From Macrostomum lignano (Eukaryota), in NCBI GenBank assembly GCA_002269645.1, contig NIVC01003007.1:1-28402 (forward strand): a DNA stretch of 28,402 nt, written 5' to 3'. Shown here piece by piece: positions 1,094 through 26,159 of this stretch. How positions within the stretch are numbered: the first letter of the stretch is position 1; each line of letters starts with the position of its first letter. The notes below the pieces were generated by a model. That model was not told the DNA's origin. It did not search any database and saw nothing but the letters and a program-made list of their open reading frames with translations. The position numbers and the translations under genes were made by a program.

Positions 1094-2380
1094 ATGAACG
1101 ACCCACTGACACCAGTTTTCTACAAAATTAACAAGCCTATTTTGAGTGATGATAGCACAATCAAAGCGACACAAGTTAGAGTTCCGAGTCACGAGAACCA
1201 GAATGAAACTAATTTGGGTCCAGGTCAAACACTGACATTTACATACAATGGATGTTCGTCTCTGGTTAGTGTGCACAGTCTTAAGAGCGGCTTCCATATG
1301 ACATTTCAATTCAAGACAAAAGGTGGTGCGGATGCGGCTCGTGCTAACGTTGACAAGCATGATGCGGATGTGGCTCTGATCAGTAACTTTTGGGCGTACA
1401 TGTTCAAGGAGTTTAGTGTATCGAATGGGAGCACAGAGTTGGAGCGAATCGCCAACTTTGGAATTGTCTATGACGCTCATTGTTTGATCGAGAATCCTGA
1501 TTTTATTCAGTTGGGAAGTGGTGCGGGTTTTATTGCAGATGAAAAAGAAGGAGATATCAATGACAGTGGTTATAAAAATAGGAAGAAGAGATACAACTAT
1601 GCATTGCAAGGTGCTGATGATGCTGCTAAGAACCCGCAGTATCGGTCTGTTGATGTATTTGTACCACTGAGATTCATGAGTGGATTCTGTAATACATTTA
1701 ATCGACTGACTAGTAACTTTAGCTACACATTTAGACTGACTAGAGATGATCGCAGTAGAGTGTTGTGGACTGGGGCGGACCACACAAGGATGGAGGTGAA
1801 GCTAACCGGAATCGAGCTGTATTTGGAAGTCATTGAGCCAAAGACTGCACTAAAAGCAGACTATCTTAAGGCAATAGAGAAGGACATTGATGTTGCATAC
1901 ACGGCCTACATGTGTCGAGATGAGCGAAACGAAACTAGAACAAACATCTGCATCAAAGAGGGATCATGCAGCAATCCAAGGTATATCATTATTAATATGA
2001 GAAACCCAAATAGCATTATACGCTACATGCATGGAGACGTGCGGTCCATTCAGCATGAAATCAGTGATAATCTTTACCCTGCACTGCCACAAAATGGAGA
2101 TTTCAGTCAGAACAAGATTAGCAAATTTTACAGCGAGTTGGTCGACTTGGCTGTGAAAGAGAACAATGGAATTGCTATCACTGCTCTTCAATATGGAACT
2201 CTATATCCGATGTTTGGAGCTGATGTGTCTGCCAGACAAATGCCTACTGATAACAGCCCTGTGAATATCGTGACTAACATTGAAAGGACTGTCGCAACAC
2301 CCGTGGACTTGTACATTATCTATGCATTTGAGAGGAAGGTGAAGCTTAACATGATCAACAATTCATCCAGTAAAGTTTAA
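1094..2380 (+). CDS. Polinton/adintovirus major capsid protein (double jelly-roll, hexon-like), intact 428 aa
   Basis: Intronless ORF with motifs typical of Polinton MCPs: KPILSDDSTI near the N-terminus, DVALISNFWAYMFKE...ELE..G, VPLRFMSGFCNTF...YTFRLTRDD, PRYIII and YPMFGADVS.Q. It lies directly upstream of a penton-like ORF. Confidence 0.85.
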   Translation: MNDPLTPVFYKINKPILSDDSTIKATQVRVPSHENQNETNLGPGQTLTFTYNGCSSLVSVHSLKSGFHMTFQFKTKGGADAARANVDKHDADVALISNFWAYMFKEFSVSNGSTELERIANFGIVYDAHCLIENPDFIQLGSGAGFIADEKEGDINDSGYKNRKKRYNYALQGADDAAKNPQYRSVDVFVPLRFMSGFCNTFNRLTSNFSYTFRLTRDDRSRVLWTGADHTRMEVKLTGIELYLEVIEPKTALKADYLKAIEKDIDVAYTAYMCRDERNETRTNICIKEGSCSNPRYIIINMRNPNSIIRYMHGDVRSIQHEISDNLYPALPQNGDFSQNKISKFYSELVDLAVKENNGIAITALQYGTLYPMFGADVSARQMPTDNSPVNIVTNIERTVATPVDLYIIYAFERKVKLNMINNSSSKV

Positions 2381-2401: not shown

Positions 2402-3265
2402 ATGGAAGCGATTGCTGAAAGACTAAATAATATTATTTCGCACTCCAAGGAGAGCATTCCTATTACAATAACTGGGCGAATTAATGACTCAAACGGGATG
2501 TTTGTTGAAAAATTAGAGCAGGCGATTCGCCTGGATCCAGGCGCTAATTACCATGTCTATCTTAACGACTTCACTGGTTGGTCAAACGTTCCCAATGTGA
2601 TGGCAGCAAATAATAAGTTTTATTACAAATGGAAAGGTGCAGCAGCAGACCCTGTGGTATTCCAGGTGAGCACGCAAAGTGTGGATACCTACAATAACTT
2701 TCTAGAAAATGTCTTTACTAAGAGAGGCCATTTTGAGACACCTGATGCGAGTAAGCCAGAGAAGAAACTGTTCCCTGTCAAACTAACCTATGATCTCACT
2801 GTAGTGAGAGTGGTCATGCAAGTTCACAAAGATGCGGAGGTTGAGTTTAAAGATGACACTTGGTATAGGGAACTGGGATTCGAGAAGAAAGTTTATAAGG
2901 CAGAATCCGCGGCGCGGACCGCCACTCAAGCATTGGGGACCGTTAGCATGGCCCGGGAAAGTGTACGCGGTTTGTTCTTAGCACCCAATATAGCAGACAT
3001 TGTAAAGGGTTTGAATATTCTAATCAGAACTAATCTCAGTCTTGATTGGGTATTTAAGGGAAAGCGAACGAATATTTTGTACAATATCTCCAACTCTGTA
3101 GCTGGAGGACAGATGGTGGTAGAGAAACCAAATCCAGTGAAAAGAGTTGTATTGAGTAATAAGGAGATTCACGAGATTGTGCTACAGTTTGAGATTGAAG
3201 ATGGGATGGGTGTTGATTTCAACTGTGAAGAGTTTGTATTGACGTTGATCATTGAGAGAATGTGA
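2402..3265 (+). CDS. Polinton/adintovirus minor capsid protein (penton), intact 287 aa
   Basis: LEQAIRLD...YHVYLNDFTGWSNVPNV..ANNKFYY at the N-terminus and GVDFNCEEFVLTLII at the C-terminus match the Polinton penton pattern. It starts 21 bp after the MCP stop. Confidence 0.8.
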   Translation: MEAIAERLNNIISHSKESIPITITGRINDSNGMFVEKLEQAIRLDPGANYHVYLNDFTGWSNVPNVMAANNKFYYKWKGAAADPVVFQVSTQSVDTYNNFLENVFTKRGHFETPDASKPEKKLFPVKLTYDLTVVRVVMQVHKDAEVEFKDDTWYRELGFEKKVYKAESAARTATQALGTVSMARESVRGLFLAPNIADIVKGLNILIRTNLSLDWVFKGKRTNILYNISNSVAGGQMVVEKPNPVKRVVLSNKEIHEIVLQFEIEDGMGVDFNCEEFVLTLIIERM

Positions 3266-3672: not shown

Positions 3673-3680
3673 TTGTTATG

Positions 3681-3840
3681 CACATGATTTTTACGAACGT
3701 TCGTAAAAATCATGTAACCACTGAGAGCCGCTTTATGCTGCACATGATTTTTACGAACGTTCGTAAAAATCATGTAACCACTGAGAGCCGCTTTATGCTG
3801 CACATGATTTTTACGAACGTTCGTGAAAATCATGTAACCA
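3681..3840. repeat. 60-bp tandem repeat (2.7 copies), each with a 34-bp palindrome
   Basis: acatgatttttacgaac|gttcgtaaaaatcatgt is perfect at 3682-3715 and 3742-3775 and has one mismatch at 3802-3835. A partial copy lies at ~4088-4115. Confidence 0.95.
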
Positions 3841-3955
3841 GTGGGAATCGAACCATGCGGGGCAGACTGAGACCGGTTTCGGGCTTGTTTGCCCTCGTCA
3901 GTCAGTCATAGCCACACGAGGTCGGCTCCACCTCTAGCCAGCTGAGTGGAACTGC
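3826..3955 (-). ncRNA. Putative ~130-nt tRNA-like/Pol III-type RNA hosting the hammerhead
   Basis: On the minus strand: TATAAATA (3963-3956), a D-arm-like hairpin CTC-AGCTGGCTA-GAG (3946-3932), a 5-bp hairpin AGCCG/TGGCT, the hammerhead, a B-box GGTTCGATTCC (3854-3844) and TTTT (3829-3826). The A-box is degenerate and the acceptor and T stems are imperfect. Confidence 0.5.
3865..3907 (-). ncRNA. Type I hammerhead ribozyme (minimal form, palindromic helix III)
   Basis: The minus strand reads GACUGA-CUGACGA-GGGC(AAACAA)GCCC-GAAA-CCGG-UC/UCAGUC. This gives a 6-bp stem I, an intact CUGAnGA and GAAA core, a 4-bp stem II and a GUC triplet, with predicted cleavage between 3871 and 3870. Confidence 0.85.
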
Positions 3956-4172
3956 TATTTATACGCCCTTGCACCAAGTCCTTGCCTTGCACATGGCGAC
4001 ATTTTCTAGTCAACCATGTGAGGAATTCGCGCCATGTTCAAATAGCTTTACTATCAGTAAGCTATCGCTTACAAATGTAACTAATACGAGCCGCTATATG
4101 CTGCACATGATTTTGTCAGTATTTTTAGATCTTGCGTCTGCACTCTACAGGGTACAACCGTGTAGTTGGCTA

Positions 4173-4409
4173 CTACAACTGCCTTATAACTTCAGCAAAG
4201 TTATAATAGCTGTCAAAATTGTTAATGACTACTCCGTGTTTTTCAAACCAGTGAGATTTAAGTGCTTGATTAATATTAGGGACATTGATATCAACGTCGG
4301 GCCAATATTTTCTCATGTACTCGCTGCATTCTAGTTTGCATCGGTACTTGGATTTGTACAATGGATGAGGCTGAGTATAATAAGAACCTGGAGAGACAAC
4401 TGGAAACAT
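4173..4409 (-). CDS. Small 78-aa hypothetical protein, probably of the Polinton
   Basis: Non-repetitive ORF whose ATG follows an A-rich leader (ctcaataaaaATG) like those of the MCP (gttaaaaaATG), penton (gaaaaaaaATG) and the 1063 gene. No family recognised. Confidence 0.5.
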   Translation of the reverse strand: MFPVVSPGSYYTQPHPLYKSKYRCKLECSEYMRKYWPDVDINVPNINQALKSHWFEKHGVVINNFDSYYNFAEVIRQL

Positions 4410-4609
4410 TTTTATTGAGAATTTAGTTTTTTTTCAAAGGGTAAGGACCCATGGTTTGGGGATTTAAAGTCTTAGGGATGTGGTAGCACGTTGCAAATTG
4501 AATGTGGGCCCCATGGGGAGAAGAATGCAGATTATTTTCTGATTGTTTCGAAGATGCTATGGGTGGATGTCAGTGTCAGTGAACATAACAGGTATCAGTG
4601 GACACCTGC

Positions 4610-4824
4610 TCTGATTCTGTCAGGGATTATATGGATGGATTTAATGGGATTATGGAGGACGTTTTGTGAGCGAGTGCGACCCCCCTTTTTTCTGATTCTG
4701 TCAGGGATAATATGGATGGATTTAGGTGGATTATGGAGGACGTTTTCGGAGCGAGTGCGACCCCCCTTTTTTTCTGATTCTGTCAGGGATAATATGGATG
4801 GATTTAATGGGATTATGGAGGACG
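4610..4824. repeat. 81-82-bp tandem repeat, 2.6 copies
   Basis: tctgattctgtcagggat.atatggatggattta...ggattatggaggacgt starts at 4610, 4691 and 4773. Confidence 0.9.
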
Positions 4825-5036
4825 TGAAAAATTTTGTCCCAAAAGCCCCCTCATGCCTTCTACTGAGTTCATTTAGATTTCTATAACGCCCGTAAAGATG
4901 CTGACCATACATTCGCTATGAAACAATTTGAGCAGACGGAATTTTCGGAGCTTAATAAAAGGCCACGCGATTCGACGGTTGGCGTTCGGCCAGGATTCAC
5001 GAGTTCCAAATAAATTACCGTGGGTAGAAGTCTAAG

Positions 5037-5382: not shown

Positions 5383-8300
5383 GCATGAATTCCGGCTATG
5401 ACTGCATTTCTGGTACAGCTGACGAAGCAGCTCGGCAGCGACAGCAGGCCGTCTACACCGGCTACAGGAATGTGGCGGCCTCGGGAGAGCCCTGCTTGGC
5501 CTGGAACCAGATCGTGGAACGAAACAAGCAGAGAAAGCAAAAAATAGATCCAGTTGGTAACGTGCATGTACTATGTAGACGTAAAATAATAAAACGCGTT
5601 TTACGTGTAAAACCAATACGGTGGTGGTTACTAGTAGAACGGTGAAGTATTTATTCGTAAGTATTATATTCAATTAAAAAAATTAACGAGATTTTTCGAG
5701 GAAAGAAAGTTTTTTCGGGAAAATTTATGATAATATTTAAAGCGCTTTAACAACAAAAACCTGGGCTAAGTTAGCAGTATGGTCTAATAGTTGTCTTGGA
5801 CAATAAAAAAACTAATTGACGAGAAAAAATCATTTATTAGAATTTTAGATTATAAGTAGCTATACTTTATAAGTTACACGTATACTTTATATACAAACGA
5901 TTATACGGGGAAGCAAGTTTCGCTACTACTCGTACAAGTTTAGAAACATCAGACAAAAACAATTTGTGACTGAATGAGAAACTCTTCTCTAGTAGCAGTA
6001 ACAACAAAACACAATAACACAATAACGATATAAAAAAAACTGTGTAGTTGTTGAGTGAAAGTATTTTATTTATTTATATAATCCAGTTGTCCTCCAGCGC
6101 TTTTAATATTTAAACAAAATGTCTTTATATTTTAAACTGTCACATTTCAGCCAACTATGACTATAAAATGCGGATTCATTTGGAAACGCCCGACTATGAC
6201 CGGCTTGAAGGTGCTGACAATTTTTGCAGGCCTGCTCAAATTATCCGGGAGTTTGGCTTTTCAGACAGGGTTTATTAGTAAGCTTTGATTGCAGCTATAC
6301 GCTTAATAGTGCTGCCAATTCAGTAATTATTTAAGTGCCAAAACACTTGCAGCCCTAAGTTCTCATATCGAACATTTCAGTCGGAACCCAGATTTGAAAT
6401 CAGACGACGAGGCTCCCTCCTGCGCTTCTGACACCTTCGGAAAATCCAACTTGGTAAATTTGGCATTGACCAAGTGCGACATTCCCGCCTGCTGTGAGTT
6501 TAGCATTTGCCAGTCAAATAGTCCTAAAAAATATTGTGCCAGTTTCTGCCTGCATCTGTCTCACTTCTGTCTGAATGTCTGTCTCTCGATTGGCGCCCGC
6601 CCCTGTCCTTGGGCCTGTCCCTCTCATCTTAGGCCTGTGATTTCACAACGCCGAAAACTCTACGAGTATATACGAGACCCTCTAGCTCGTACAAGACCAA
6701 ATTTGACAACGCCAAATATTTGCATGGTCCTTGTTTTATTAAGTTTTCTACGATGTGAACTTTCCGTCATATGAATTTTCGGACTTGTAAAGGGTCTTGC
6801 ATATGGAGTTTTCGGTGTTGTGAAATTTCGGTCTTATGAAAGGAACCCATCAGTTCTTTAGTTTGTTTTTTTAATAGGAACGTCCCCCCCCCTCGCCCCT
6901 CCCCTTCTGCTTAGGCCACAATACAATATAGTACATGTATTTAGCTTTAAGATAAGTAGAAGAAATGTCACAGTCAATAAGTGCTACAGTTTTCTAGCTC
7001 TTATTGATGTCTTGCAGACACTAAAGTTCCCACCGTGACTGCTGCGATCCGGGATGGCATCGGCAGCCACCTGCTGGCCCTGCAGTTCAGCAGCGACCTG
7101 AGCTTCACCCTGGCCGAGTGCTCCTTCGGTGGCCAGAGCTGCACTAAAGACGACTTCCTGAGCGTGTCTCACCCGCAGCTGGGCATGTGTCACCACTTTA
7201 TGAAGCAGCGATTCACCCAGAACATGTCCAGCTCGCAGTTGGCGGACAGTCAGCTGTCAATCAAATATTTCACGGACTTGACAGACTCGAATGGTGGAAC
7301 AATACCAGAATTGGACAAGCTGAACCGCATCGTGCACAGGTCCGTCAGCAATGATGAAAGAAAAATCGCTTTTAAAGTAAGTCCTACAAACAGTGAATAT
7401 TTTGAAACTGTTTGTACCATGCCGTTGCGTTGTGTTCTTCTCTCAATTTTTCATGTCCTAATTCCCATGTCTTAGTTCCTAGTTCTCAACCCCGCCTGTT
7501 CAATCTTATTTCTCATTGTTAGTAGAAGCTTTTATTTAATTACCACTTTATTAGTTTTTCACGAACATCTGAATTTTGCAGGCAGTCATAGTCCCAGAAG
7601 GCAGCTACCCATGGCCGTCAAAGGGTGTCGATGTTGCCACAGCTCAAAGCATGGATATTCAGTTGAGTTTTAAAAAAATTAAGAAGCTATCCACTGCATC
7701 GAGGCCCTGTGTTGAGAACACGGAGCCTGTAACTTACAGAATGCCGTCTTGGAAGCAGGCTAAAACCACGAGTTCTAATGAGTAAGCCTGGAAATATTAC
7801 TTGGACATAAGTATGATCCTAAATTGCATTATCGTGACTTTCTATTTCAGGGAAAATATACGTTTACACTTCGTTAAGGCAGCCTCGGAATGGTGGCAAA
7901 AAATTGCTGTTCTGCGAGCACAACTTGAAAAACAAAACGCGTTGAGGTGCGTGGCATACTGTACTCAAAATTTTAACCTGTCCAACAGTTTAATCCTACG
8001 ATATGAAATCTTTTACATTTGACTTTGTAGACCCCTGCAAGCAATGGATTGGCGCTACAATATCCCAAGCAAAGAAGACTACACAAACAAATTTACTGTG
8101 CAACATTTCGCTAAGGCATGTAACTGCTTGCCATCATTTCTGCCAATTGAAGTTGAGTTATTCTCGAACTATACCTTCTGCTTTGACACCAATGACACGG
8201 GAACTGTGTCAAGGCTACGGGAATCATGCTACAGAGAGCAGTTATCGAAGCTGCTGCAGTACCAGTTCGAGGCGGCTAAGAAAGCCTTGTCGCCGTGCGA

Positions 8301-11300
8301 GGAAACCGACTACGACATGCGGCTTATCTCCTACGCTTGGCCGGATCTAAGTGGCGCCAAGTCGATGGAGATTCTAAAGAAGCTGGCGCACAATTTTGGC
8401 TTAGGAACAGAGTACAGTCGTCTTAGAGGAATAAGCAGCATCTACAGCACTTACTGGCGCTCTCTGGTCATGTTGGAAAGCAATCTGACCGAGAGCAACT
8501 TGCACGATAGAATTAATTTTGAAAACGAGCTAAAATTTCTTCGAGACCGACTGGCTCAACTGACGGTTAAAGGATTGACGTCGTATGGTCAGGAAATTTC
8601 GGAAGAGGAGGCCTACCCCGCGAAAAATCTTCTGGCCGATATAGGAGGTAACTGCGTTTTTTGACTGTATGTTTTTGAATTACTAAAGCCAATCAAGTCT
8701 AAAAACCTTACACACCGCAGCAACAGCCACTGCCACGAGAATTGCACCTAACCCACCCCATTCGCTCAGTCACTGGATGAGGAAGAACTTTTTTAATTTT
8801 TTTATTGCACACTAGTTCTCATCTTCTTCTCTCCTACTAATAGTAGGCTAGATTGTTAATTTAGGATTTTCTTTATTGATGATTGCTTTTCTGCGTTAAG
8901 ACTTCGTGTTGAGTCGAAGTGGCCTTTCTTTATTGAGAGGCAGGCCGGCGAAGCTGGAGGGATGAAAAGCAGCTCCTCTGCATGTAAAAAGTCTGTTGTC
9001 CAGCGCTAGCTTTTCGAAAATGGCTTTGAAACTTGACTCCGCTTGCGAGCAACCCTGACAGTCTCCATGGCGTATTCTCATGAGTATCTTCTGGGTGAAC
9101 GGGTCTCTGTGTCCATTTACATGTATGTCAAAATTCTTTCGGGCTCGATCACCAGTGATTCGAATGCCTCGGCGTTGATGGTATCAGACGTTTCCTTGTC
9201 GTCTGCGAAATAGTTGTCGAAGCGGAGCCGATGTGGAGCGTCAGCGTGTGGAATATCGCAGCTTCTTGCACATACTCGATGTTCAAGAGTCAAAGTGCAT
9301 GAGACGCATAGCCCAGCGCCCAATTCTCGACGATGTGTGCAAAGCTGTAGAGATGTCACAGCCAGAAGAGACGACTCAGTGGCTGAAAATCGTGCCTAAC
9401 GGCCATGAAGGAAGTTTGATTTTTGAGCAATTTGATTTGGCGGCTGACAGTGTCCTCGAAACAAATATTTCGGGATATCTCTCCTATGTCACTACGCGGC
9501 GATTGAGCTCTTTGAGGCATCCTTTCTTAGAGTTAACTCTTTTGATAGGCTATAGGGCTTGCACTATATATTGCACTATTGGGACTTCAGCTTTGAGATT
9601 ATCGAAAGCTCGAGAGCACTCATCGGTCCAGTCAAAGTTGATGTTAGATTTTTGCAGTTAATTAAGAGGAACAGTATTTTGAGCGAAGTTCGGAATCAGT
9701 CTCCTAAAGCAGTTGACCAGTCCCAAAAGCTGGCGAGCTCAGATTTGTTTGTCGGGGCAGAAACGTGTCTGACTTTTTTATACCAGCCGTTCATCTTGGC
9801 TGGATTCCGAATTTGAGATCGATCGGGCTTCACCAAGTGACTGCGACGCCATTTTAGTGTTTCTTTCTGTTTTACATTTGCGTTGAGTCGAAGGCCTTTC
9901 TGAATTGAGCATACCCTCTTAGGAAATTCAAAGCTTATTCCTAGTTAAATTCCTAGTCTAAATGTGAATATTAAAAGTTAATTAAACTACGAATGAGAGA
10001 ACGATTGTGTCCTAGTAAAGGTGACTGTTTGAATTAATAGCAATTTATCAAAGCTATACTTCTATTGTTTATTCTTACTATTTTTATGGCAATTTATAAG
10101 AAAAATAATTCATTATCTTACTTAAATCTTACTCAATTGCTAAATTTATAATTGCCTATTTCGATCAATACTACTGAAAAAAAATTGTGTGCTACTAAAC
10201 GTAGTAAATAAACACGAGTATGACTCCTAAATGTTGAACTTTGATTCATGCTCACCTGTTTTAGGGCGTCACAATTTTTCACATTTTTCGATTTATTATC
10301 GTATATAGCTATCATTTCTCGCTCCAGAAAGTATAGATAGTTTGTCTTCTGTTTGTCTTCAACTACAACCTGAAATATAATAAACCCGAATTATCATAAA
10401 CCCGAAATATCACAACTTCGAAAGTTCTAGCAACGCCCAACACTATTTTGGTTTTCGAAGTGATGCTGTTTCGGGTTTATGATAGAAAGCGCTTTTCGAA
10501 ATTGTGATTTTTCGTGTTAATGATGGCGACCCCCCTCCCTGGGGCACATGTATGAGAGGTCGCCATGCAGGCGCAAAGGATTTTGCGAGGTCTTGAAAGT
10601 CGAGCTAGTCATCCTGAGCTCGTCCAATAAGAAAATTCCACACTGAGTATAACAAATCGGCCCTTCTCACCTCTCGTTTAAATGTGCTATTTTTGTGGAA
10701 GAACTTCAATTCCTATTGCTCCGATTCAGTTCCAAGCAAATAACTTTAAATTAAAGAGAAAGTCAAATTTCGATCATTTAAGTTTTCAAGTGCAACTCTT
10801 ATCGCAATGCTAGACAAGATGAGTGGCCACTTTGCTGATCGAGGTTTTTCCAGTCCATTAGTCTATCGATCAAACAGGTATTGGAAATCCCGAATACTTT
10901 CTGAGAATTTAGTTTTTTGATCATGTATTCAGACGACAGCGCAAGAACCCCCACAAAAAGTCCCATCAGTCCGTGCTGCATGATCAATACGATCTAATCC
11001 TAGCAGCGTCCGGCTTTATACATATCGGAGATGAACAGTTATAGCTATAAAAGACACTAGTTGGCAGGTACGTGTGCAGAAGCCGCAATTCTAGTCAAAA
11101 AACTGATTTAGAAAGTGCTGCTTCGTTAAGCCTGTTCAGCTTGTGATGGCGGATTAGCATAAATCCTGGGATTTGTTGTTTTCTACCCTACAAATTCCCC
11201 TACTAGTCTCTCGCTCTCCTCTCTTTTAGCCATATTGACCTATCATCTGACAGGAATGCAAGGCTAGCTAGAGTGCTCAGTGATTCATTTCTGGACTCTG

Positions 11301-14660: not shown

Positions 14661-17600
14661 TCAGTCTGGTCCGCTAGTAGCTCTCTCATTCCTCAGCTTC
14701 ATCACCAAATTAACCGGCTGCTGGCGATAACCAACTGCTACCAGATCGTTGATCTCTTCGTGCTGCCCAAGACTCTTGCAGCAGCAGCAGCAGCAGCGGT
14801 CAAAACAGCGTGACAAAGGTGTCGGCCAGCGGCTCTGATAAGCCCCGTAGATTACCGGATTCACAGCGCTGGTAGACATGCCGAAAAAGAACACTCCGTT
14901 TGAAATCAGTTCCACCGCGTCGTTGTACCGACCTCCGCTAAGCCGGTTAGCGCACGCAAATATGTACAGGCCCCAGTAGGGCAGCCAGAGCAGTAGGAAT
15001 GTCAAAATGATGACGGAGAACATTCGAAAGCTGCGCAGTTTTGCGCGAAGTAAAAATGCCTGACGATAGCTGGCGATGAAGTTGCCGGCTTGGTTTAATT
15101 GCATCTCGTAGCTCGGCGGCGACTGGGTCTGAAGTTGAGACCGCTGCTGCTGCTGCTGCCGCTGTTTTGGATGATGATGATTATTTAAGAAGTCGGTGCC
15201 GAGTGTCGGCGAGCTGGGTTCGGGCTGCAGCGGCTGCTGCTGCTGTTGCTGTTGGTAACCGTTCAGACTTTCAGCATCCGTGGCTGAAGTGACGCAGAAG
15301 AAAATTAGACTCTCAAGGTGAGATTCTTGGGTTTGACCCGTTTGAGATAGCAATTAGAGTCGGTCTCACAAAGACTCTCAGGGTGAGATTCTATGGTATG
15401 CGATAGCAACTAGAGTCGGTCTCACAAAGAGTCTCAGGGTGAGATTCTAGGGTCTGAGATAGCAATTAGAGTGTTATTAAACTCTCAGGGTGAGATTCTA
15501 GGGTTGGAGATCGGTCAGTCTATAGGGACTGGCTAAATTCTTCCTAATGCTGGCTAGTTGCAGTCGGAAGATTAAATTTAAAATTTGGAGAAAAATTGCT
15601 TTGATAATCAACCTCAGAAAAAATCTCTCATTTGAGGGCTTGATTTATCAAAAATATGAAAAAACGGCTTGGAAATGAATTCGATGGTGCTATAGCTGCA
15701 CAATGAGATTTGACTCATTGAAATTTACATACTCCATTGTTTCCGAGAGTAGATTTTATCACGAATTTGCTGAAGGCAGCATGCGAGCGTACAAAATGGA
15801 CATTTGCATTTGCAAACTGGACTGCTTGTTGTAATATTGGAATAAAACACTCTCCTGTCAGGCACAGGAGGGTGTTCTACAGGAGGGTGTTACACAGGAG
15901 GGTGTTACACAGGAGGGTGTTACACAAAAGGGTGTTGTTACACAGCGATAGGCTATAGTGATTATAGTTAAAGAGTCAATGTAAACTAGCTTTCACTAAA
16001 AGTGCAAAGAAAGCTTTGAAGTTGTACAATCTATTCAAAAAGTCGTATAGAGGTTATAACCTACATTGCAGAGTCAAAATACATGTAATTCGATCCCCAT
16101 AGCAGAATCCATCCACTTAATGAAAGGATTAGCTAGACTCGAATTACACATAGGCAACAAGTCCATAGTTTCAATGCGAACGGAAGTGAGCTTATAAGAT
16201 AAAGCTTATAATTATTATATTATTATTATTTTGGTGAAGAGCGGTTGAAACTGCATATTTAAAGATTACAAGTTCCTCTCTGGTTAAGTTCATTATATAT
16301 ACGCGCTCGTAGGTATATTTCCACCATTCCGCTATCTCTCATCTCTGCCTCTCTCATCTCTGCCTCTCTCATCCATCCTCTCTCATCTCTGCCTCTCTCA
16401 TCTCTGCCTCTCTCATCCATCCTCTCTCATCTCTGCCTCTCTCATCTCTGCCTCTCTCATCCATCCTCTCTCATCTCTGCCTCTCTCATCTCTGCCTCTC
16501 TCATCCATCCTCTCTCATCTCTGCCTCTCTCATCTCTGCCTCTCTCATCCATCCTCTCTCATCTCTGCCTCTCTCATCTCTGCCTCTCTCATCCATCCTC
16601 TCTCATCTCTGCCTCTCTCATCTCTCCCTCTCTCATCCATCCTCTCTCATCTCTGCCTCTCTCATCTCTGCCTCTCTCATCTCTGCCTCTCTCATCCATC
16701 CTCTCTCATCTCTGCCTCTCTCATCTCTGCCTCTCTCATCCATCCTCTCTCATCTCTGCCTCTCTCATCTCTGCCTCTCTCATCCATCCTCTCTCATCTC
16801 TGCCTCTCTCATCTCTCCCTCTCTCATCCATCCTCTCTCATCTCTGCCTCTCTCATCTCTGCCTCTCTCATCCATCCTCTCTCATCTCTGCCTCTCTCAT
16901 CTCTGCCTCTCTCATCCATCCTCTCTCATCTCTGCCTCTCTCATCTCTCCCTCTCTCATCCATCCTCTCTCATCTCTGCCTCTCTCATCTCTGCCTCTCT
17001 CATCTCCGCCTCTCTCATCTCTGCCTCTCTCATCCAATCCTCTCTCATCTCTGCCTTTCATCTCTGCCTCTCTCATCCATCCTCTCTCATCTCTGCCTCT
17101 CTCATCTCTGCCTCTCCCATCTCTGCCTCTCTCATCCATCCTCTCTCATCTCTGCCTCTCTCATCTCTGCCTCTCTCATCCATCCTCTCTCATCTCTGCC
17201 TCTCTCATCTCTCCCTCTCTCATCCATCCTCTCTCATCTCTGCCTCTCTCATCTCTGCCTCTCTCATCCATCCTCTCTCATCTCTGCCTCTCTCATCTCT
17301 GCCTCTCTCATCCATCCTCTCTCATCTCTGCCTCTCTCATCTCTCCCTCTCTCATCCATCCTCTCTCATCTCTGCCTCTCTCATCTCTGCCTCTCTCATC
17401 TCCGCCTCTCTCATCTCTGCCTCTCTCATCCAATCCTCTCTCATCTCTGCCTTTCATCTCTGCCTCTCTCATCCATCCTCTCTCATCTCTGCCTCTCTCA
17501 TCTCTGCCTCTCTCATCTCTGCCTCTCTCATCCATCCTCTCTCATCTCTGCCTCTCTCATCTCTGCCTCTCTCATCTCCGCCTCTCTCATCTCTGCCTCT

Positions 17601-20600
17601 CTCATCCAATCCTCTCTCATCTCTGCCTTTCATCTCTGCCTCTCTCATCCATCCTCTCTCATCTCTGCCTCTCTCATCTCTGCCTCTCTCATCTCTGCCT
17701 CTCTCATCTCTGCCTCTCTCATCTCTGCCTCTCTCATCTCTGCCTCTCTCATCCATCCTCTCTCATCTCTGCCTCTCTCATCCATCCTCTCTCATCTCTG
17801 CCTCTCTCATCTCTGCCTCTCTCATCTCTGCCTCTCTCATATCTGCCCCTCTCATCTCTGCCTCTCTCATATCTGCCCCTCTCATATCTGCTCCTCTGCC
17901 TTATATTCTAACTCGTTCTCAGTCTCTGTATCTCTGATTGAGTCAGGAGTATAAGTACAAATGCCATTAATTAATGCTATTAACAATCGATCAATATTTC
18001 CATAGCTGTTTACTCACCGCCCAGTTCGCGAGATTTCCCCGAGATCCTGCTAATAATGAGTCCGTAAGCTGTGCTCAAGCAGCACAGTGGGCCAAGAAAC
18101 AGACTGGCAATGTTAAACAGCATGTAGGCCAGCACCAGCTTGTCCATGTGAGCTGTCAGGTGGTCTGTGCTAGTGGGCTGCATATCCAGCGAGACGCATT
18201 GGTAGAAATCTTCTCTCCATGGGCCTCGGGCCAGTCCAAAGAAGAATAGCTGAAAAGTTAGACATGAGACACTTGTGTTAGACATGAGGCATTTATGTTA
18301 GACATGAGGCCACTTGTGTTAGACATGAGACACTCTGTTAGACATGAGGCCACTTGTGTTAGACATGAGGCACTCTGTTAGACATGACGCCACTTGTGTT
18401 AGACATGAAGCATTCTGTTAGACATGAGGCCACTTGTGTTAGAAATGAGGCACTCTGTTAGACATAAGGCACTCTTTTAGGCATGAGGCACTCTGTTAGA
18501 CATGAGGAACTCTGTTAGACATGAGGCCACTTATGTTAGACATGAAGCATTCTGTTAGACATGAAGCATTCTGTTAGACATGAGGCACTTATGTTAGACA
18601 TGAGACACTCTGTTAGACATGAGACACTTGTGTTAGACATGAGACACTTGTGTTAGACATGAGACACTTGTGTTAGACATGAGGCACTTGTGTTAGACAT
18701 GAAGCCACTTATGTTAGACATGAAGCATTCTGTTAGACATGAAGCATTCTGTTAGACATGAAGCATTCTGTTAGACATGAAGCATTCTGTTAGACATGAG
18801 GCACTTATGTTAGACATGAGACACTCTGTTAGACATGAGACACTCTGTTAGACATGAGACACTCTGTTAGACATGAGACACTTGTGTTAGACATGAGACA
18901 CTTGTGTTAGACATGAGACACTTGTGTTAGACATGAGGCACTTGTGTTAGACATGAAGCCACTTGTGTTAGACATGAGGCACTTGTGTTAGACATGAAGC
19001 CACTTGTGTTAGACATGAGGCACTTATGTTAGACATGAAGCCACTTGTGTTAGACATGAGGCACTTATGTTAGACATGAAGCCACTTGTGTTAGACATGA
19101 GGCACTTGTGTTAGACATGAGGCACTCTGTTAGACATGAGGCACTCTGTTAGACATGAGGCCACTTATGTTAGACATGAAGCCACTTGTGTTAGACATGA
19201 GGCCACTTATGTTAGACATGAAGCCACTTGTGTTAGACATGAGCCCACTTGTGTTGGACATGAGGCACTCTGTTAGACATGAGGCACTCTGTTAGACATG
19301 AGGCACTCTGTTAGACATCGAGGTGAACGCAGAGCCGTGTCAGGATGAACACAGACTTATGAAATGTACACAGTCCCGATGGGTAGTACGCAGCTGTGAA
19401 AAACGTCCTCAGCTTTAACACGCCAAGCCCATTCTCACCTGCGGCGCGGCCATCAAGCAGCTCAGCAGCCAGGCCGCAGTCAGCAGTCGCACCCGAACAG
19501 TCGGGCTGCTCCAGTTCCACGGCTTGACCACGGCCACCGCTCGGTCAATGCCGATGGCAACCGTCACGTAGGCGCTGGCGGTCAGCGATAGGCCTTGAAG
19601 GAATTTGAACAGCCGGCAAAGCAAGTCGCCGCCGTAAAACTGCACCGTCATCATCCAAGCCACGTTGCCTAGGAAACAGAAGAACACAACTAGCAGGTCG
19701 GCCACAATCAGGTGCAGCATCAGCTGACTGCAGTGGGCATTTCGACGCTTGTCGGTGACGCGTCGGAGAGCGCGCAAGTTTGTCAGCAGGGCGAAGGTGA
19801 AAATGCAGAGCAGAATGCTGCTCTTGGCGATGCTCGTGCGGCCCAGTCCCGGGTACGGTGGCAGCGAAGCGTTGGCTGGTGGCTGCGGGTTGGGAGAGTG
19901 TACATGAGATGTACATCTGGCTGTGTTCTCATGAGGTGTACATCTGACTGTGTTCTCATGAGGTGTACATCTGGCTGTGTTCTCATGAGGTGTACATATG
20001 GCTGTGTTCTCATGAGATGTACATCTGGCTGTGTTCTCATGAGATGTACATCTGGCTGTGTTCTCATGAGATGTACATCTGGCTGTGTTCACCTGGGTTG
20101 TACATCTGGCTGTGTTCTCATGAGATGTACATCTGGCTGTGTTCACCTGGGTTGTACATCTGGCTGTGTTCTCATGAGATGTACATCTGGCTGTGTTCCC
20201 ATGAGATGTACATCTGGCTGTGTTCACATGGGGTGTACATCTGGCTGTACTCTAGAGAAGGATGTACCTATATATCCTTTACAGATACATCACGTAGGAG
20301 TTTGAAAACAAATGTGACAATGAAATACAGTGAATTCAACAAGGGGAGAGTGAGAAGAGGTGTGACAGAAAGATTTGGCGGGGAAAGTTGACAGGGGGAT
20401 GCGATGAGGGAATGTGATAGAGGAATGGGACAGGGATGTGACAGGAAGATGTGCCAGGAAGATGTGACAGGAAGATGTGACAGGGGGTGTGACAAGGGAA
20501 TGCGACTGGTCAAGCATGCTGGACAGAGGAGTAAAAATGCAAACAGATGAAGGGCCTCAGTCAGCATTGTTATCCATGCACATCTGAGGCGCTCTTCCCC

Positions 20601-21932
20601 AATCGCTAATTGGAACTCAGAGCAAAAAAATTCGAAATAATTGCCAAATCCTATTTTAGTTTCGCGTGAATACGACGATTTCGGATCCCAAGAGACTGTG
20701 AGAGGGGCAGATGGCCTGACTACCCTGATAATTGAGTGTTTGAGTCTCCCCTCCTCAGGAGCTAATCCCACCTCCCACATTTTGCTCCAAATTCAACTGG
20801 AGAGTTTTCTGAGGTTTTCTTAATTGATTTATCCTCTTTGCCTGGCTACAGGAATTTCATTCAATTAATTTGCCTGGTTCTGCCGCTGGCCACCGACTCG
20901 CTGTCATCCCCTCTCATCTCCCTCCCTCACTCATCCCCTCTCATCTCCCTCCCTCTCTCATCCCCTCTCATGTCCCTCCCTCTCTCATCCCCTCTCATCT
21001 CCCTCCCTCTCTCATCCCCTCTCATCTCCCTCCCTCTCTCATCCCCTCTCATCTCCCTCCCTCTCTCATCCCCTCTCATCTCCCTCCCTCTCTCATCCCC
21101 TCTCATCTCCCTCCCTCTCTCATCCCCTCTCATCTCCCTCCCTCTCTCATCCCCTCTCATCTCCCTCCCTCTCTCATCCCCTCTCATCTCCCTCCCTCTC
21201 TCATCCCCTCTCATCTCCCTCCCTCTCTCATCCCCTCTCATCTCCCTCCCTCTCTCATACCCTCTCATCTCCCTCCCTCTCTCATCCCCTCTCATCTCCC
21301 TCCCTCTCTCATCCCCTCTCATCTCCCTCCCTCTCTCATCCCCTCTCATCTCCCTCCCTCTCTCATCCCCTCTCATCTCCCTCCCTCTCTCATCCCCTCT
21401 CATCTCCCTCCCTCTCATCCCCTCTCATCTCCCTCCCTCTCTCATCCCCTCTCATCTCCCTCCCTCTCTCATCCCCTCTCATCTCCCTCCCTCTCTCATC
21501 CCCTCTCATCTCCCTCCCTCTTTCATTCCCCTCTCATCTCCCTCCCTCTTTCATTCCCCTCTCATCTCCCTCCCTCTCTCATTCCCCTCTCATCTCCCTC
21601 CCTCTTTCATTCCCCTCTCATCTCCCTCCCTCTGTCATCCCCTCTCATCTCCCTCCCTCTCTCATCCCCTCTCATCTCCCTCCCTCTCATCCCCTCTCAT
21701 CTCCCTCCCTCTCATCCTCTCTCATCTCTCTCCCTCTCTCATCTTCTCCCATCTCCCTACCGCTCTCATCTCCTACCAGCTCCTAGCTCCTCTCATCTTC
21801 TCTCATCCCCTCTCGTCTCCCTAACTTTATAATCTCCCTCTCTATCTCACCTCTCATCTCATCGAGACAAAAAACAGCAAGAGCTGGAACAAATCTTACC
21901 AAAGTAGTCAAGTCGAGTAATTGAGCTTGCAT
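14661..21932 (-). CDS. Rhodopsin-class neuropeptide GPCR of the GnRH/AKH/corazonin receptor superfamily; complete 4-exon model, 443 aa
   Basis: Exons 21932-21900 (MQAQLLDLTTL, donor GTAAGA), 19882-19439, 18249-18018 and 15283-14661 total 1332 nt with phases 0,0,1. Motifs: HLIVADLLV, AWMMTVQFYGGDLLC..KFLQ, GIDRAVAV..P, APQ|LFFF...GPWREDFYQCVS, RAKLRSFRM, WLPY and NPVIYGAY. Confidence 0.9.
15309..15510. repeat. Degenerate tandem repeat of ctctcagggtgagattctagggt...gagatagcaattagagt, ~4 copies
   Basis: The motif is repeated visibly in the GPCR intron next to the last exon. Confidence 0.75.
15855..15945. repeat. ~14-bp minisatellite (acaggagggtgtt[a/c])
   Basis: About 5-6 direct copies. Confidence 0.85.
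16335..17895. repeat. Pyrimidine-rich 14/15-bp minisatellite (ctctcatctctgcct / ctctcatccatcct)
   Basis: ~1.55-kb array; it explains the DERGR-type ORFs in the track. Confidence 0.95.
18257..19318. repeat. 19-21-bp minisatellite (gttagacatgaggcacttgt variants)
   Basis: It fills almost the whole intron between GPCR exons 2 and 3. Confidence 0.95.
19900..20251. repeat. 27-bp minisatellite (tacatctggctgtgttctcatgagatg)
   Basis: About 13 copies; source of the NTARCTSHE, MRCTSGCVL and MYIWLCSHE ORFs. Confidence 0.95.
20904..21760. repeat. 27-bp pyrimidine-rich minisatellite (ctctctcatcccctctcatctccctcc)
   Basis: ~30 copies; source of the SLPLSSPLI and MRGDERGRE ORFs. Confidence 0.95.
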
Positions 21933-22022
21933 GACAGCTTTTTTGTCTTTTATATTCGTATTTGCCTTAGGATATCCTCTAGGGGAGATAGCCGTTGCAG
22001 CCGCTGTCCCCCACGCAGGCCG

Positions 22023-22076
22023 TATTTATAAACTGCCGCGGCCTGGTCTCCCTCATGGCACTCTCTGATTGGCTGC
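22023..22076 (-). promoter_or_regulatory. Pol II promoter of the GPCR: CCAAT box plus TATA box
   Basis: Minus-strand AGCCAATCAG (CCAAT at 22072-22068) and TATAAATA (22030-22023) lie ~90 nt upstream of the inferred ATG at 21932, with plausible spacing. Confidence 0.65.
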
Positions 22077-22999
22077 TTAAGACAGAGCAATTAGACTGAT
22101 GCATCAAATGTTCTGAGCTTCAGAATAGAATTTTAGTATTTGGAAATAGAGACAGGGGCTTTTACGGCACCTGTGGGGATTAAGGTTCAGATGGGAATTT
22201 GGAAAATATTTACTCTTGATCCTCTCCTAAATGGGAAAGTTAAGCATTCTTTTTCTTGTGTTCTTAGAGTGCTCATTTCTTGTTCTTAGAGTGCTCAATT
22301 TATATGCTATTGGAGTGCTCAATTTATGTTCCTAGAGTGCTCACTTCATGCACCTTTAGAGACAGAGTGCTTTCTTTGTGTGTTCTTTTAACACTCTAGT
22401 CCAGGTGTTAAAGGTGTCAGGAGGTCCTTGAACAGCGTCATGTTTTCTAGAAAGTCACCTGACTAGATTAGCCCTCAGCAGCTCTACGCCCTCGAAAAAA
22501 CGTGGGTGTAATAATCACTGTTTACCTGCCTTAACATGATTAAAGATCAGATAGAATCGGATTTCAAAGTGAGTAAAATCAATTTCTTTTAATTTAAACA
22601 ATTGCAGTCCGTGATCAACACCGGAAATTTAGCCACCCCCTCACACAGACCATATTTCTTTTGCGAAAATATCTATTTATATTCTTATTGACGTCATCCT
22701 TTTGCTTTGCTTTTTGCTTTTGCAATCGACAGAGTAAAAGCGAGAGATCTTTATTCCAGCAAGCTTTGAGCAAGAAGTTCAACTAGCTAAGCAGGCACTC
22801 ACAGCGGATGAGGGGCAATGGCTCGGTCATTTCGGAAATTAGTTTTCTGACTACCTCGTACTTCTTACACTAGTTTGGCTTCTTGAAAATCCGACGAGTA
22901 GAATATAACATAGCAATTTTTCATTTTTTGTTTGAGCGCAATTAATTAAAAGCTAATTAGAAGTGAAACACAGTTTTATCCCGGCATGCACAGAAAAGC

Positions 23000-23320
23000 G
23001 ATGATAAGAAATGGGGTGGTGGGCGATAGTTGGGGCTGGGAGTGAGGTGGGTGTCTGTTTGTGGGAAGGAGTCCAGAGCAAGGCCAATGATAAGAAATTG
23101 GGTGGTGGGTGCGATAGCTTATGCTGGGAGTGAGGTGGGGGTCTTCCCGGTGGACAGGAGTGCACCGAAAGGCAATAATAAGAAATGGGGTGGTGGGTGC
23201 GATAGCTTGGGCTGGGAGTGAGGTGGGTGTCTTCCCGGTGGACAGGAGTGCACCGAAAGGAAATGAGAAGAAATGGGGTGGTGAGAAATGATTAGATTGG
23301 AAGTGAGGTGGGTGTCTGTC
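23000..23320. repeat. ~90-95-bp tandem repeat, ~3.5 copies
   Basis: gataagaaat.gggtggtgggtgcgatagctt.ggctgggagtgaggtggg recurs. Confidence 0.85.
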
Positions 23321-24129
23321 TAACGGGTGGAGGAAAGACAAAACTACTCGTAGTCTGCAAAACATCCTGAAGTGTTTAGGATTTTCTTGGAGGGTTCGGC
23401 TTCTACGAGTCTTGTATCTGCACTTCTCAGGCAACGTGAGTATAGTTGACCAAGGTCTCCATCCCCGTATTAGAAGCCTTTCTAGTAGCGCAGGTATAGT
23501 TACTGCCACCAGTCCCTTCGGGTCTCAGTCTTCGGTGAGGTGAGCTTCCCGTCGGAACGAAATTAATAAGACGAGCGAAATCAGCACTTGGTGCAGATCT
23601 ACGATTGCAGACGATCAGTCAGCAGATCCTGCCGGGCTCAAAAGTGAGTGGGAGCTGGGCAGTGTTAGCCTGGGGTCAGACTCAGAAGTCTGGGTTTGAC
23701 GCGAGAACATAAGCGGGACAATGTCAGATTTGGAAACTTGGAGAATTTAGCAAACTGAATAATTAGAAACTGAAGCTGAACTCCTTGATGGAAATCACGT
23801 GAGATCTATTTTTAGCAACTGACGTCAGTGCCTTGCCTAGTAAAGCAAGAATTCCGAAGCACGTGAGCTCTGCCATAAGCACGCGCAAAATCAATGAAGT
23901 AAACATTTTTACTGTTCTTTTGGACTCCAAGAAACAAGGCTTGTCATGTGGCGCTGGCCAGATAATCGTTGTCACGCGCTGGGACCTGATTGAAAGTAGC
24001 TGATTGAAAGTTGCTGACAGTCCAATTTATATTTTAAGGAGTCTCATGTTCCAACTGAAAATAAGAAGTCTTGGTCATGCTTTGGCCACAGACAAATAGC
24101 TATATTTATGACGTTGAATATCAATTTAT

Positions 24130-25142
24130 ATGCTAACAAATGCCAAAACTCATCGGATGGTTAAAATTCGCAGTAAACTTCTGAGCACTGGGCAGTCAAT
24201 CAGCAGCATGGTCAGCAACAGCAGCAACACCCACGCCTGTTCGTTCCGCACCGCCCTACAACAGGCCTGCAGCCTGGACGTGGACACCAGCCCAGCCAAG
24301 ACCACGGGCACCGGCATCATGTGCACCATCGGCCCCGCCAGCTGGAGCGCCAAAGTCATCGCCGAGATGGTCCAAGCCGGCATGGACATTGCCCGGCTCA
24401 ACCTGTGTCATGGCACCTTAGAAGAGCATCGTCGAGCGTTGAAACTAATCGCCGAAGCCGAGGAGAAACTCCGCGACGATCCGGAGGTCTCCACTTGGCA
24501 GCACAAGCCGCTGGGCGTGGCGGTGGACACTCGCGGATCTGAGATTCGAACTGGCGCCCTACCGGAACATGGCAAGCTGACGGACACTGTGAATCTGGAG
24601 ACTGACAGCCTCGTGACCATCGACTGCTCACCAACTGGAGCTGCACAGCCCATCACGTCAACTCGACTGTGGGTCGATTTTGACAACTTCGCCAAGATTG
24701 TACAGCCTGGCCAAGCTGTGTACATCGACGACGGACTGCTGGAGCTGCGTGTCGAGTCGCCGCGACCGGCTGACTCGGCCGTGGACTGCCTGGTGATCGT
24801 CGGAGGCCAGCTGGGCGCCGCCCGGTGCGTCTGCCTGCCCGGGTGGACACCGGCATGCCTGAGGTCTCCCAGCGCGATCTCGACGATCTAGCGGCTCTGG
24901 CATCCGACTCGGGCGACGATTCTTTGGCGAGGATTGGCATCGTCATGGGTTCGTTTGTGCGCAGCGCCGAGACGGTGCGACGGCTGCGCCAAGCGGCCAC
25001 GGCTGACGGTCGGCCACCGCCGCTTGTCGTCGCCAAAATTGGCGACGCCAGAGGCCTACAGGCGCTGGAGGAGATTCTAGTTGAAGCCGACGGCGTTTTG
25101 GTGGCACGCGGCGACTTGGGGTGCGAGCTACCCCAAGAGAAG
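24130..25142 (+). CDS. pyk: Pyruvate kinase-like gene, 5' exon, with a 1-nt frameshift at ~24842 (pseudogene or assembly error); downstream exons not found in window
   Basis: TGIMCTIGPAS, GMDIARLNLCHG, DTRGSEIRTG and YIDDGLLEL, then in another frame VDTGMPEVSQRD, SFVRSA, AKIGD and DGVLVARGDLGCELPQEK followed by a GT donor at 25143. The start codon is uncertain. Confidence 0.85.
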
Positions 25143-25224
25143 GTTTGTTGCTGGCAATTCGCTGGTGAATGTGGTCCGATATCCAAGTTGACACCCGATC
25201 TCCACGATCGAAGTGTCGGGATAC

Positions 25225-25824
25225 GTCTAGGTTGAGACTGGGGTGTCCAATTCAAGACTGGATGCTCAAGTTGAGTCAAGGGTTTCCACTTTAAAGGATA
25301 AGTCGTAAGACAGGGGTGTCCAGGTGTAGACAGGAGGGTCCAAATTAAGAAAAAAGTGTCCAGGTTAGAACAGGAGTCTCCAGATTAAGACAGGAGTGTC
25401 CAGGTTAAGACAGGGTTATCCAGGTTAAGACAGGGATGTCCAGGTTAAGACAGAGGTGTCCAGGTTAAGACAGGATGTTAAGCCAGAGGTGTCCAGGTGA
25501 AGACAGGAGTGTCCAGGTTAAGACAGGAGTGTCCAGGTTAAGACAGGGTTAACCAGGTTAAGACAGGAGTGTCCAGGTTAAGACAGGGTTAACCAGGTTA
25601 AGACAGGAGTGTCCAGGTTAAGACAGGGTTAACCAGGTTAAGACAGGAGTGTCCAGGTTAAGACAGGGTTAACCAGGTTAAGACAGGAGTGTCCAGGCCG
25701 TTAGAACAGGAGTCTCCAGGTTAAGACACGGGTGTCCAAATTAAGACAGGGGTGTACAGGTTAAGACAGGAGGTTAAGACAGGGATGTCCAGGTTAAGAT
25801 ACGGATGTCCAGGTTAAGACAGGA
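25225..25824. repeat. 20-bp minisatellite (gtgtccaggttaagacagga)
   Basis: Direct tandem copies with two alternating variants. Confidence 0.95.
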
Positions 25825-26159
25825 GCAGTTGCTATTACCGTATTTAATTAGCCATGCCGTGGGCTGATCCAAGTGGGCGGATAAAAGAAGTTAGATTGAA
25901 AAATAACAGACTGCCACACAAGAAGCTTTGAAAGATGTCGGGTTGATTTCAAGTCTGCCTTCGCCATCTACTCATCCAAGCTGATGAGAAATATGAGCTA
26001 ACGCCTACAGTAGTGCTGATGAGTTGCAAGCAATTAGTTTTTTTCATTGTGCGGGCCCCTATGGAGTGAGATTTGGGATTTGAGATGATGAGAATTGAAA
26101 TGATGGAGTTGAAGATGAGTGACATAAAGTGAGTGAAATTGATTATATTGACATTGGTT

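Follow-up and report, generated by a model that had tools for sequence, protein, structure and literature searches.

A hammerhead-bearing TRIM of an animal genome: a solo LTR carried by a Polinton and a possible LTR retrozyme

The 238-bp unit at 3836..4073 on the minus strand of the window, by which we mean the whole 28,402-nucleotide stretch of DNA analysed here, is, as judged from its sequence, a solo LTR. It belongs to a non-autonomous LTR retrotransposon (TRIM) of 620 bp. It contains a type I hammerhead motif placed between tRNA-like A and B boxes. We put at roughly 0.7 the probability that this solo LTR is carried as a passenger of a Polinton and that the free element multiplies as an LTR retrozyme through a 390-nt RNA circle.

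A hammerhead motif in the LTR of a short retrotransposon

When we searched the genome with positions 3800-3990, the ribozyme unit was covered by at least 39 matches, at least 25 in Polinton context and at least 14 at eight other loci; 40 of 52 candidates were scored, so these counts are lower bounds. The flanks of the eight listed non-Polinton loci were unrelated, and their common stretch was exactly 230 bp long (TGTAAG...CTGATA). Five of them carry a solo LTR and the other three carry LTR-160 bp-LTR arrays, with two LTRs at C3053, three at C4118 and four at C201. The full TRIM at C3053 is 230+160+230 = 620 bp long and non-coding. The 5-bp target duplication, which was taken directly from the flanking sequence of each locus, was perfect at seven of the eight listed free loci and agreed in four of five bases at the eighth, and neither a poly-A tail nor a 5' truncation was seen at the free loci. 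A sequence-only reading of this DNA had placed the unit at 3826..3963, and the real unit turned out to be larger (3836-4073). Compared with the 230-bp LTR, the window LTR has gained 18 bp in U3 and lost 10 bp near its 3' end.

The interior of the TRIM begins 2 bases past the LTR with TGGTTCCCTG, its primer binding site (PBS), and ends in a polypurine tract (PPT), GAAAAGCGGGAAGA. The PBS shows 10-base complementarity to tRNA-Glu-like 3' ends with CCA within the genome, which were present at 3 of the 30 loci retrieved by the PBS motif; we take the matching tRNA to be of isotype Glu, and ARAGORN reported no tRNA gene at these 30 loci. Searches with the interior and the PBS recovered only the six known interiors. 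The LTR termini are TG...TA, those of the candidate helper described below are TA...TA, and those of an older related family are TG...CA. The element therefore has the features of a TRIM, namely two LTRs in less than 1 kb of non-coding sequence, a PBS and a PPT, and a target duplication in the 4-6-bp range. The same tRNA-Glu PBS was observed in a gag-only non-autonomous element with a PNMA domain (L231) and in a short non-autonomous element with identical 455-bp LTRs (L234).

The type I hammerhead lies at 3854..3918 on the minus strand. The sequence-only reading had described such a hammerhead, with a palindromic helix III and between A and B boxes, and all of its motifs were found in place on this strand: stem I (6 bp, GACUGA 3907-3902 with UCAGUC 3870-3865), the CUGACGA core (3901-3895), stem II (4 bp, 3894-3881, with an AAACAA loop), the GAAA core (3880-3877) and helix III, which is the palindrome ACCGGU, with the predicted cut site (GUC) at 3871/3870. 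The core CUGAnGA/GAAA/UH with helices I and II is complete in the window copy. The Rfam model Hammerhead_HH9 matched 3847-3919 with 32.7 bits (E=1e-4), below the gathering score of 52; this match further indicates an outer stem I, 3918-3912 with 3860-3854 on the minus strand, followed by an internal loop and then the 6-bp stem I. The bare core pattern was also reached in 74 of 100 shuffles window-wide and is not beyond chance by itself, while a tight core pattern gave 49 matches in the genome and none with the reversed control. When the 138-nt unit was folded, its z value against shuffles was -1.5. The minimum-energy fold of one copy does not form the active core and that of two copies is a double hammerhead; dimer-type action has been described for most metazoan type I hammerheads in the accessible part of PMC4209133. 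Based on its motifs, we identify the element as a type I hammerhead with a palindromic helix III, and its self-cleavage at the GUC, as a dimer, is a prediction.

Of the 14 listed free LTRs, 11 retain the complete core, stems and palindrome, among them all LTRs of C201 (four) and C3053 (two) and one of the three at C4118. When we compared the hammerhead with the rest of the LTR in the free copies, 5 of 37 and 15 of 179 columns were variant, respectively (p=0.35), and the column comparison revealed no excess conservation of core and stems in either the free or the Polinton-borne set (L025, whose 3' end is misaligned, was omitted from the latter count). Covariation across the two LTR families was not above shuffles (287/500).

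The A-box-like stretch TGGCTAGAGGTGG is located at 3928..3940 on the minus strand and fits the pattern TRGCY..YGG, with A14 out of register; this pattern is given for the Helenus TRIMs in the accessible text of PMC10886601. The B box GGTTCGATTCC (3844..3854, minus strand) follows 73 bases past the A box, and both Helenus-type boxes, TRGCY and YGG at 3940-3928 and GGTTC at 3854-3844, are thus present in the LTR. The element CTCAGCTGGCTAGAG named by the sequence-only reading was found in place at 3946-3932 (minus strand). The U3 region contains a TATA-like box (3956..3963, minus strand), which reads TATAAATA in the window and CATAAATA in the free TRIM copies and is CATAAAAG-like in the older family. 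The score of the B box was reached in 13 of 100 shuffles window-wide and is not beyond chance by itself; the A and B boxes recur together with the ribozyme at related loci. Of the tRNA-like, Pol III-type unit proposed earlier, the boxes stand and the tRNA fold does not: ARAGORN found no tRNA gene with cloverleaf, anticodon and T arms, Rfam gave no tRNA match, and by inspection the T-stem has only two pairs. The tRNA-like part of the LTR consists of boxes only, without a tRNA fold. The downstream TTTT, which had been counted as part of the unit, is indeed present at 3829-3826 (minus strand) but belongs to the 60-bp repeat of the Polinton, outside the LTR; the LTR's own TTTT is deleted in the window copy.

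An older solo-LTR family with the same hammerhead gave at least 40 matches, mostly 75-90% alike (40 of 285 candidates were listed). Among its 11 aligned rows, an A-box-like stretch occurs in six and an exact GGTTCGA in four, and the first pair of stem II is non-standard in ten. No full-length older TRIM was found, since no partner LTR was present within 1.5 kb at any of the 23 loci examined out of the 40 listed. Contigs of 1.8-1.9 kb in two sequencing runs that we guess to be RNA (shorter in a third) contain a degenerate hammerhead stretch of the older family, perhaps an old LTR within a host transcript. At L108 (C494, about 1330-2650) there is a 36-bp tandem array of dozens of units that resemble a bare hammerhead core, CTGATGA...GAAACCGGTC.

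A proposed RNA circle and its candidate helper

A search with gag led to a Gypsy-type family with the order gag, protease, RT, RNase H and integrase. Three copies (C1189, C1405 and C1878) have 1.04-kb LTR pairs that are 99.9% alike, and these share with the TRIM the PBS at the 2-base offset, a similar PPT and 5-bp duplications; their LTR ends are TATAAG...CGTATA, compared with TGTAAG...CTGATA in the TRIM. Because the PBS, the PPT, the LTR ends and the 5-bp duplications are common to both, this young Gypsy family is likely the helper of the TRIM. The helper of plant retrozymes has likewise been inferred from common short signals, according to the accessible part of PMC4918200. No similarity between the Gypsy family and the TRIM was found beyond these short signals, and the three helper LTRs examined contain neither a hammerhead nor a B box. 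Three other Gypsy copies that were retrieved lacked an LTR pair or such a PBS in range, and the first seven tRNA-Glu-PBS loci retrieved held no complete autonomous element. In C1189 (L261:1-6420, minus strand), a single frame of 2,458 codons includes a Monjiviricetes-type fusion-glycoprotein domain (PF24664, E=2.8e-7), which lies after gag and ahead of the protease, where an env-like domain is unusual.

We suggest that the free element would multiply as follows. Transcription would start in the 5' LTR and end in the 3' LTR. Initiation would probably be by Pol III from the A and B boxes, with read-through of the first TTTT; a start by Pol II from the TATA-like box is a possibility that we rate somewhat below even odds. 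Two hammerheads 390 nt apart would then pair via ACCGGU into a double hammerhead and cut, by which a 390-nt monomer would be freed, and this monomer, without terminal redundancy, would be ligated to a circle that retains the PBS and the PPT. Reverse transcription by the co-resident Gypsy family would be primed by tRNA-Glu, and rolling reverse transcription would give solo, unit and multimeric cDNA, which the Gypsy integrase would insert with 5-bp duplications. The solo LTR in the Polinton lacks a PBS, a terminator of its own and a second hammerhead in cis and would thus give at most a short, poorly cutting RNA.

When the 390-nt monomer was folded as a circle, its energy was -146.5 kcal/mol (z -4.7), and none of 60 shuffles was as low. 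In all three runs guessed to be RNA, from three studies, the unit appeared as one self-closing contig of 420 nt, which carried free-TRIM alleles and was of even depth. In run X19, the depth of the LTR was about five times that of the interior, and the LTR branched into the Polinton and other flanks. The RNA nature of the runs is a guess, none being on record as RNA, and a closed contig also arises from read-through of tandem arrays or from DNA, so that it is a weak hint at a circle. The contigs gave no molecule ends.

Here, we need to consider the observations that count against this mechanism. First, many Pol III transcripts would end at the LTR's TTTT past the B box, ahead of the PBS; a T-run past the B box is also found in two fungal Helenus LTRs in the portion of the supplement of PMC10886601 that was covered. 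Second, tandem TRIM arrays can also form by unequal crossing over. Third, signals of ribozyme selection and of covariation are absent, and stem II of the older family opens with a non-standard pair. The last two points would also fit a passenger that is an ordinary TRIM and that, like Helenus, replicates by LTR strand transfer, with arrays formed by unequal crossing over and a hammerhead that is vestigial or trims short transcripts. Tandem arrays are reported for a ribozyme-free Helenus in the accessible text of PMC10886601, and with the guessed status of the runs this further favours such an element. On the other hand, the hammerhead is complete in most of the listed free LTRs and still recognisable in a second family that is 75-90% alike, the 390-nt circle folds far under its shuffles, and closed-loop contigs occur in the three guessed-RNA runs, which is weak evidence. 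Based on these observations, we consider an ordinary TRIM unlikely, and the retrozyme with an RNA circle is preferred.

A more specific version of the retrozyme can be suggested tentatively. The element might be an animal LTR retrozyme with a viroid-sized 390-nt circle, transcribed by Pol III from a tRNA promoter that is split by a dimer-cleaving hammerhead; the circle might be reverse-transcribed and packaged by Gypsy and might act as an intercellular satellite RNA, and its LTR would be hitch-hiking in a capsid-encoding DNA element. Since the Gypsy bears a fusion-protein-like domain, a packaged circle could travel between cells.

The LTR as cargo of Polintons

Polintons and adintoviruses are characterised by terminal inverted repeats, 6-bp duplications, an rve integrase, pPolB, a C5 protease and capsid genes. 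The window is a whole contig, which starts inside such an element, and the Polinton ends at 4864. The major capsid protein gene is at 1094..2380 on the plus strand (428 aa; PF21738, E=1.7e-5, 24.6 bits, below the cut-off of 27); its product is DJR-like, and PF21738 was found in nine of its nine relatives, while the best match to PDB sequences had E=0.51, which is chance level. The plus-strand ORF at 2402..3265 (287 aa, without a Pfam match) probably encodes the minor capsid protein (penton), which we presume from its position, and it has at least 136 genome matches at 91% identity or more (136 of 578 candidates scored). The 60-bp tandem repeat of the Polinton (3679..3835) includes a 34-bp near-palindrome, and the LTR landed in such a unit. 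Its copy number among Polinton ends ranges from 1 to about 24, and it could be a protein-binding or replication signal. An Rfam match to MIR4227 at 3682-3775 was rejected, being this palindromic repeat and far under the gathering score. The terminal inverted repeat occupies 4151..4864 (714 bp in the C2068 copy), contains 81-bp repeats at 4610-4853 and ends ...CTACT, and one side of the 6-bp target duplication is at 4865..4870.

Two other copies complete the picture of the host element. The C2068 Polinton is 14.9 kb long, has 714-bp inverted repeats that are 99.6% alike, and encodes an rve integrase, pPolB, a C5 protease and a PLA2-like domain. The C4162 Polinton (16.7 kb) is a near-identical twin of the window insertion, and both sides of the 6-bp target duplication are visible there. 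The host element is a Polinton/adintovirus by its terminal inverted repeats, 6-bp duplication, integrase, pPolB, protease and capsid in the copies C2068 and C4162, of which the window holds the capsid end only. The capsid-encoding Polinton end that the sequence-only reading had recognised is hence confirmed by the PF21738 capsid, the end at 4864 and the twin with its 6-bp duplication. The host matches known capsid-encoding Polintons and adintoviruses in its inverted repeats, 6-bp duplications, integrase, pPolB, protease, PLA2-like domain and capsid, and differs in that the ribozyme unit, which is outside the Polinton gene set, travels as cargo in a minority of copies.

The LTR is flanked by a target duplication, the 5' copy of which is ACATT (4074..4078, minus strand), as in 13 of the 25 listed Polinton-borne copies. 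The 3' copy is ACATG in the window (3831..3835, minus strand) and ACATT in L024, where the duplication is perfect. All 25 listed copies share the same site in the 60-bp repeat and the same 10-base loss, which includes the LTR's TTTT, and 17 of them keep the terminal TGATA. The last five bases of the window LTR match the Polinton repeat in place of this usual end, which we attribute to drift of the LTR terminus and of the 3' duplication towards the repeat sequence. At C273, C1178 and C293, the Polinton end has one repeat unit that is LTR-free. The shared site, the shared deletion and the LTR-free ends are explained by one insertion of the TRIM into a Polinton. There are near-identical duplicates among the 25 (L001/L003 and L016/L017), and the copies therefore do not represent 25 events.

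When we examined the capsid end at the best 30 of at least 136 penton loci, seven had the LTR, 20 reached the terminal repeat LTR-free, and the remaining three had no terminal repeat within 1.5 kb. The cassette is at the capsid end in 18 of the 25 listed copies and at the integrase end in six, and one copy is truncated. On the capsid-gene tree the cassette is scattered, with a label that needs four changes, at least two of them forced by well-supported branches; the resolution of this tree is low, with 12 of 22 inner branches open and two long rows, and it does not give the order of events. The ribozyme is intact in 12 of the 25 listed copies, carries G12A in 11 and has a core deletion in two; G12A is an inactivating change of the hammerhead. 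In the boxes of the Polinton-borne copies, 3 of 13 A-box and 1 of 11 B-box columns are variable. With its presence at 7 of the 30 closest loci and 12 intact cores among 25, the LTR unit is not a fixed, conserved part of the Polinton. The Polinton-borne LTR is likely a passenger from a single nested insertion, which is ordinary in kind.

It had been suggested that the motif might be a small RNA of the polintovirus itself, and this does not hold, as the unit is absent from most of the Polinton copies examined and occurs dispersed, with target duplications of its own. In a modified form, one Polinton lineage might use the captured LTR as a VA-RNA-like Pol III small RNA or as a promoter or terminator beside the terminal repeat, with a ribozyme that is maybe dispensable or selected against. 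The cassette has been kept in at least 25 copies at both ends of the element, its changes on the capsid tree are partly forced, and its B box is hardly altered, all of which would fit such a use. In addition, a 75-nt contig of run X1 crosses from the LTR to the Polinton repeat, which means that the Polinton copy may be transcribed. However, most close Polintons are LTR-free, 13 of the 25 cores are broken, the A box varies without any excess conservation, the whole subterminal zone is freely swapped among copies, and several of the 25 are near-identical duplicates. We thus regard a use by the Polinton as improbable, and the passenger from a single nested insertion is the preferred reading.

The subterminal zone of the Polinton behaves as an exchangeable module, and other cargo ORFs were seen in this zone of other Polinton copies (L187, L188, L189 and L191). 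Three Polinton derivatives (C1584, C633 and C2140) have the capsid-side ORF at each end, in inverted orientation, which suggests end-duplication events of a kind that may have moved the LTR cassette.

Relation to known elements and the rest of the window

The sequence-only reading had also considered a SINE or a Penelope repeat riding in the Polinton, of which the passenger part stands and the class does not, since the PBS, PPT and 5-bp duplications are those of the LTR of a TRIM. A SINE, a Penelope pseudo-LTR or an animal non-LTR retrozyme inserted by target-primed reverse transcription would fit the type I hammerhead, the palindromic helix III, the 390-bp tandem period and the tRNA-like boxes (PMC4209133 and PMC7229834, as far as accessible), but is largely refuted and very improbable given fixed ends at eight of eight listed free loci with constant 5-bp duplications, arrays that start and finish with a whole LTR, a PBS and a PPT in canonical places, and neither poly-A tail nor 5' truncation.

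In the accessible parts of the literature, plant LTR retrozymes have a type III hammerhead, a PBS, a PPT and 4-bp duplications (PMC4918200, PMC7761336), and animal retrozymes are non-LTR elements with a type I hammerhead, without LTR, PBS or PPT (PMC7229834, 10.64898/2026.07.22.740005). The TRIM described here resembles the plant LTR retrozymes of Cervera, Urbina and de la Pena 2016 (PMC4918200, in part) in being non-coding, with a hammerhead in each LTR, a PBS and a PPT, solo, unit and multimeric copies, a Gypsy helper that is deduced from common PBS, PPT and LTR ends, and a structured monomer between two ribozymes. By the same source, it differs from them in its animal host, in its type I dimer-type rather than type III hammerhead, in its tRNA-Glu PBS and 5-bp duplications (tRNA-Met and 4 bp in plants), in the tRNA-like A and B boxes around the ribozyme, and in a monomer of 390 nt rather than 600-1000 nt, the circles here being predicted only.

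The Helenus/TRIMp3 elements (Kojima 2024) are TRIMs with tRNA boxes that are known from six animal phyla, the animal families having 4-bp duplications, and the accessible text of their description (PMC10886601) mentions no ribozyme; the supplement was screened by five short terms over 108,717 characters. As described in that text, Helenus resembles our TRIM in its length of less than 1 kb, the A and B boxes in the LTR, the PBS and PPT, the solo LTRs and tandem arrays, and the Gypsy helper in animals, and a tRNA-Glu PBS is known from bivalve Helenus families (PMC10886601). Set beside Helenus by description only, the TRIM differs in its 5-bp duplications as against 4 in animal Helenus, and in having a hammerhead in place of the tRNA-like middle (PMC10886601, in part), and ARAGORN detects no tRNA in it. 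From these comparisons, we suggest that the TRIM functions in the manner of a plant LTR retrozyme and has the architecture of Helenus, yet departs from each in described features; it does not belong to the plant family as described.

In schistosome Sm-alpha repeats a full tRNA stands beside the ribozyme in a non-LTR repeat. Here, by contrast, only boxes are left, with the ribozyme between them, and the repeat unit is an LTR. The combination of tRNA-related sequence and a type I hammerhead in one short repeat is common to both, according to the accessible part of PMC4918200. With metazoan non-LTR retrozymes and Penelope pLTRs, as partly covered in PMC7229834 and PMC4209133, the TRIM shares a 6-bp helix I, a 4-bp helix II, a palindromic helix III and a tandem period in the 150-450-bp range (PMC7229834, PMC4209133, 10.64898/2026.07.22.740005); it differs from both in the LTR, the PBS, the PPT and 5-bp instead of longer duplications (PMC7229834, PMC4209133).

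What is likely new, on the sequence evidence, is an LTR retrozyme from an animal, in whose LTR the A and B boxes enclose a type I hammerhead. Within the open literature covered, neither an animal LTR retrozyme nor a hammerhead in a Polinton was found; Repbase or supplements may contain such an element. A metagenome scan for a hammerhead with a B box gave four matches, all in bacterial-looking coding DNA without stems or repeats, which we regard as chance.

The literature separates plant LTR elements with type III hammerheads from Penelope-dependent animal non-LTR elements with type I hammerheads, and an animal type I hammerhead within Gypsy-type signals breaks this division. It would imply that a ribozyme module can switch its mobilising partner, for which a young candidate helper is present in the same genome. 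The LTR is a natural example in which Pol III promoter boxes flank a ribozyme, and the predicted circle is short. An LTR of a retroelement amplified at least 25-fold as Polinton cargo also points to a possible route of horizontal spread, and cautions that hammerheads in endogenous DNA viruses may be nested LTRs. If true, the retrozyme reading would join the plant LTR and the animal Penelope-type lines and suggest that animal TRIMs include hidden hammerhead LTRs.

The 7tm_1 and ASC exons in the window show that the host is an animal; we guess it to be a flatworm. Host exons of an ASC/DEG-ENaC channel, a rhodopsin-family receptor and pyruvate kinase were observed at 8044-8664, 14661-19720 and 24130-25235 of the window, amid dense minisatellites (16200-28402).
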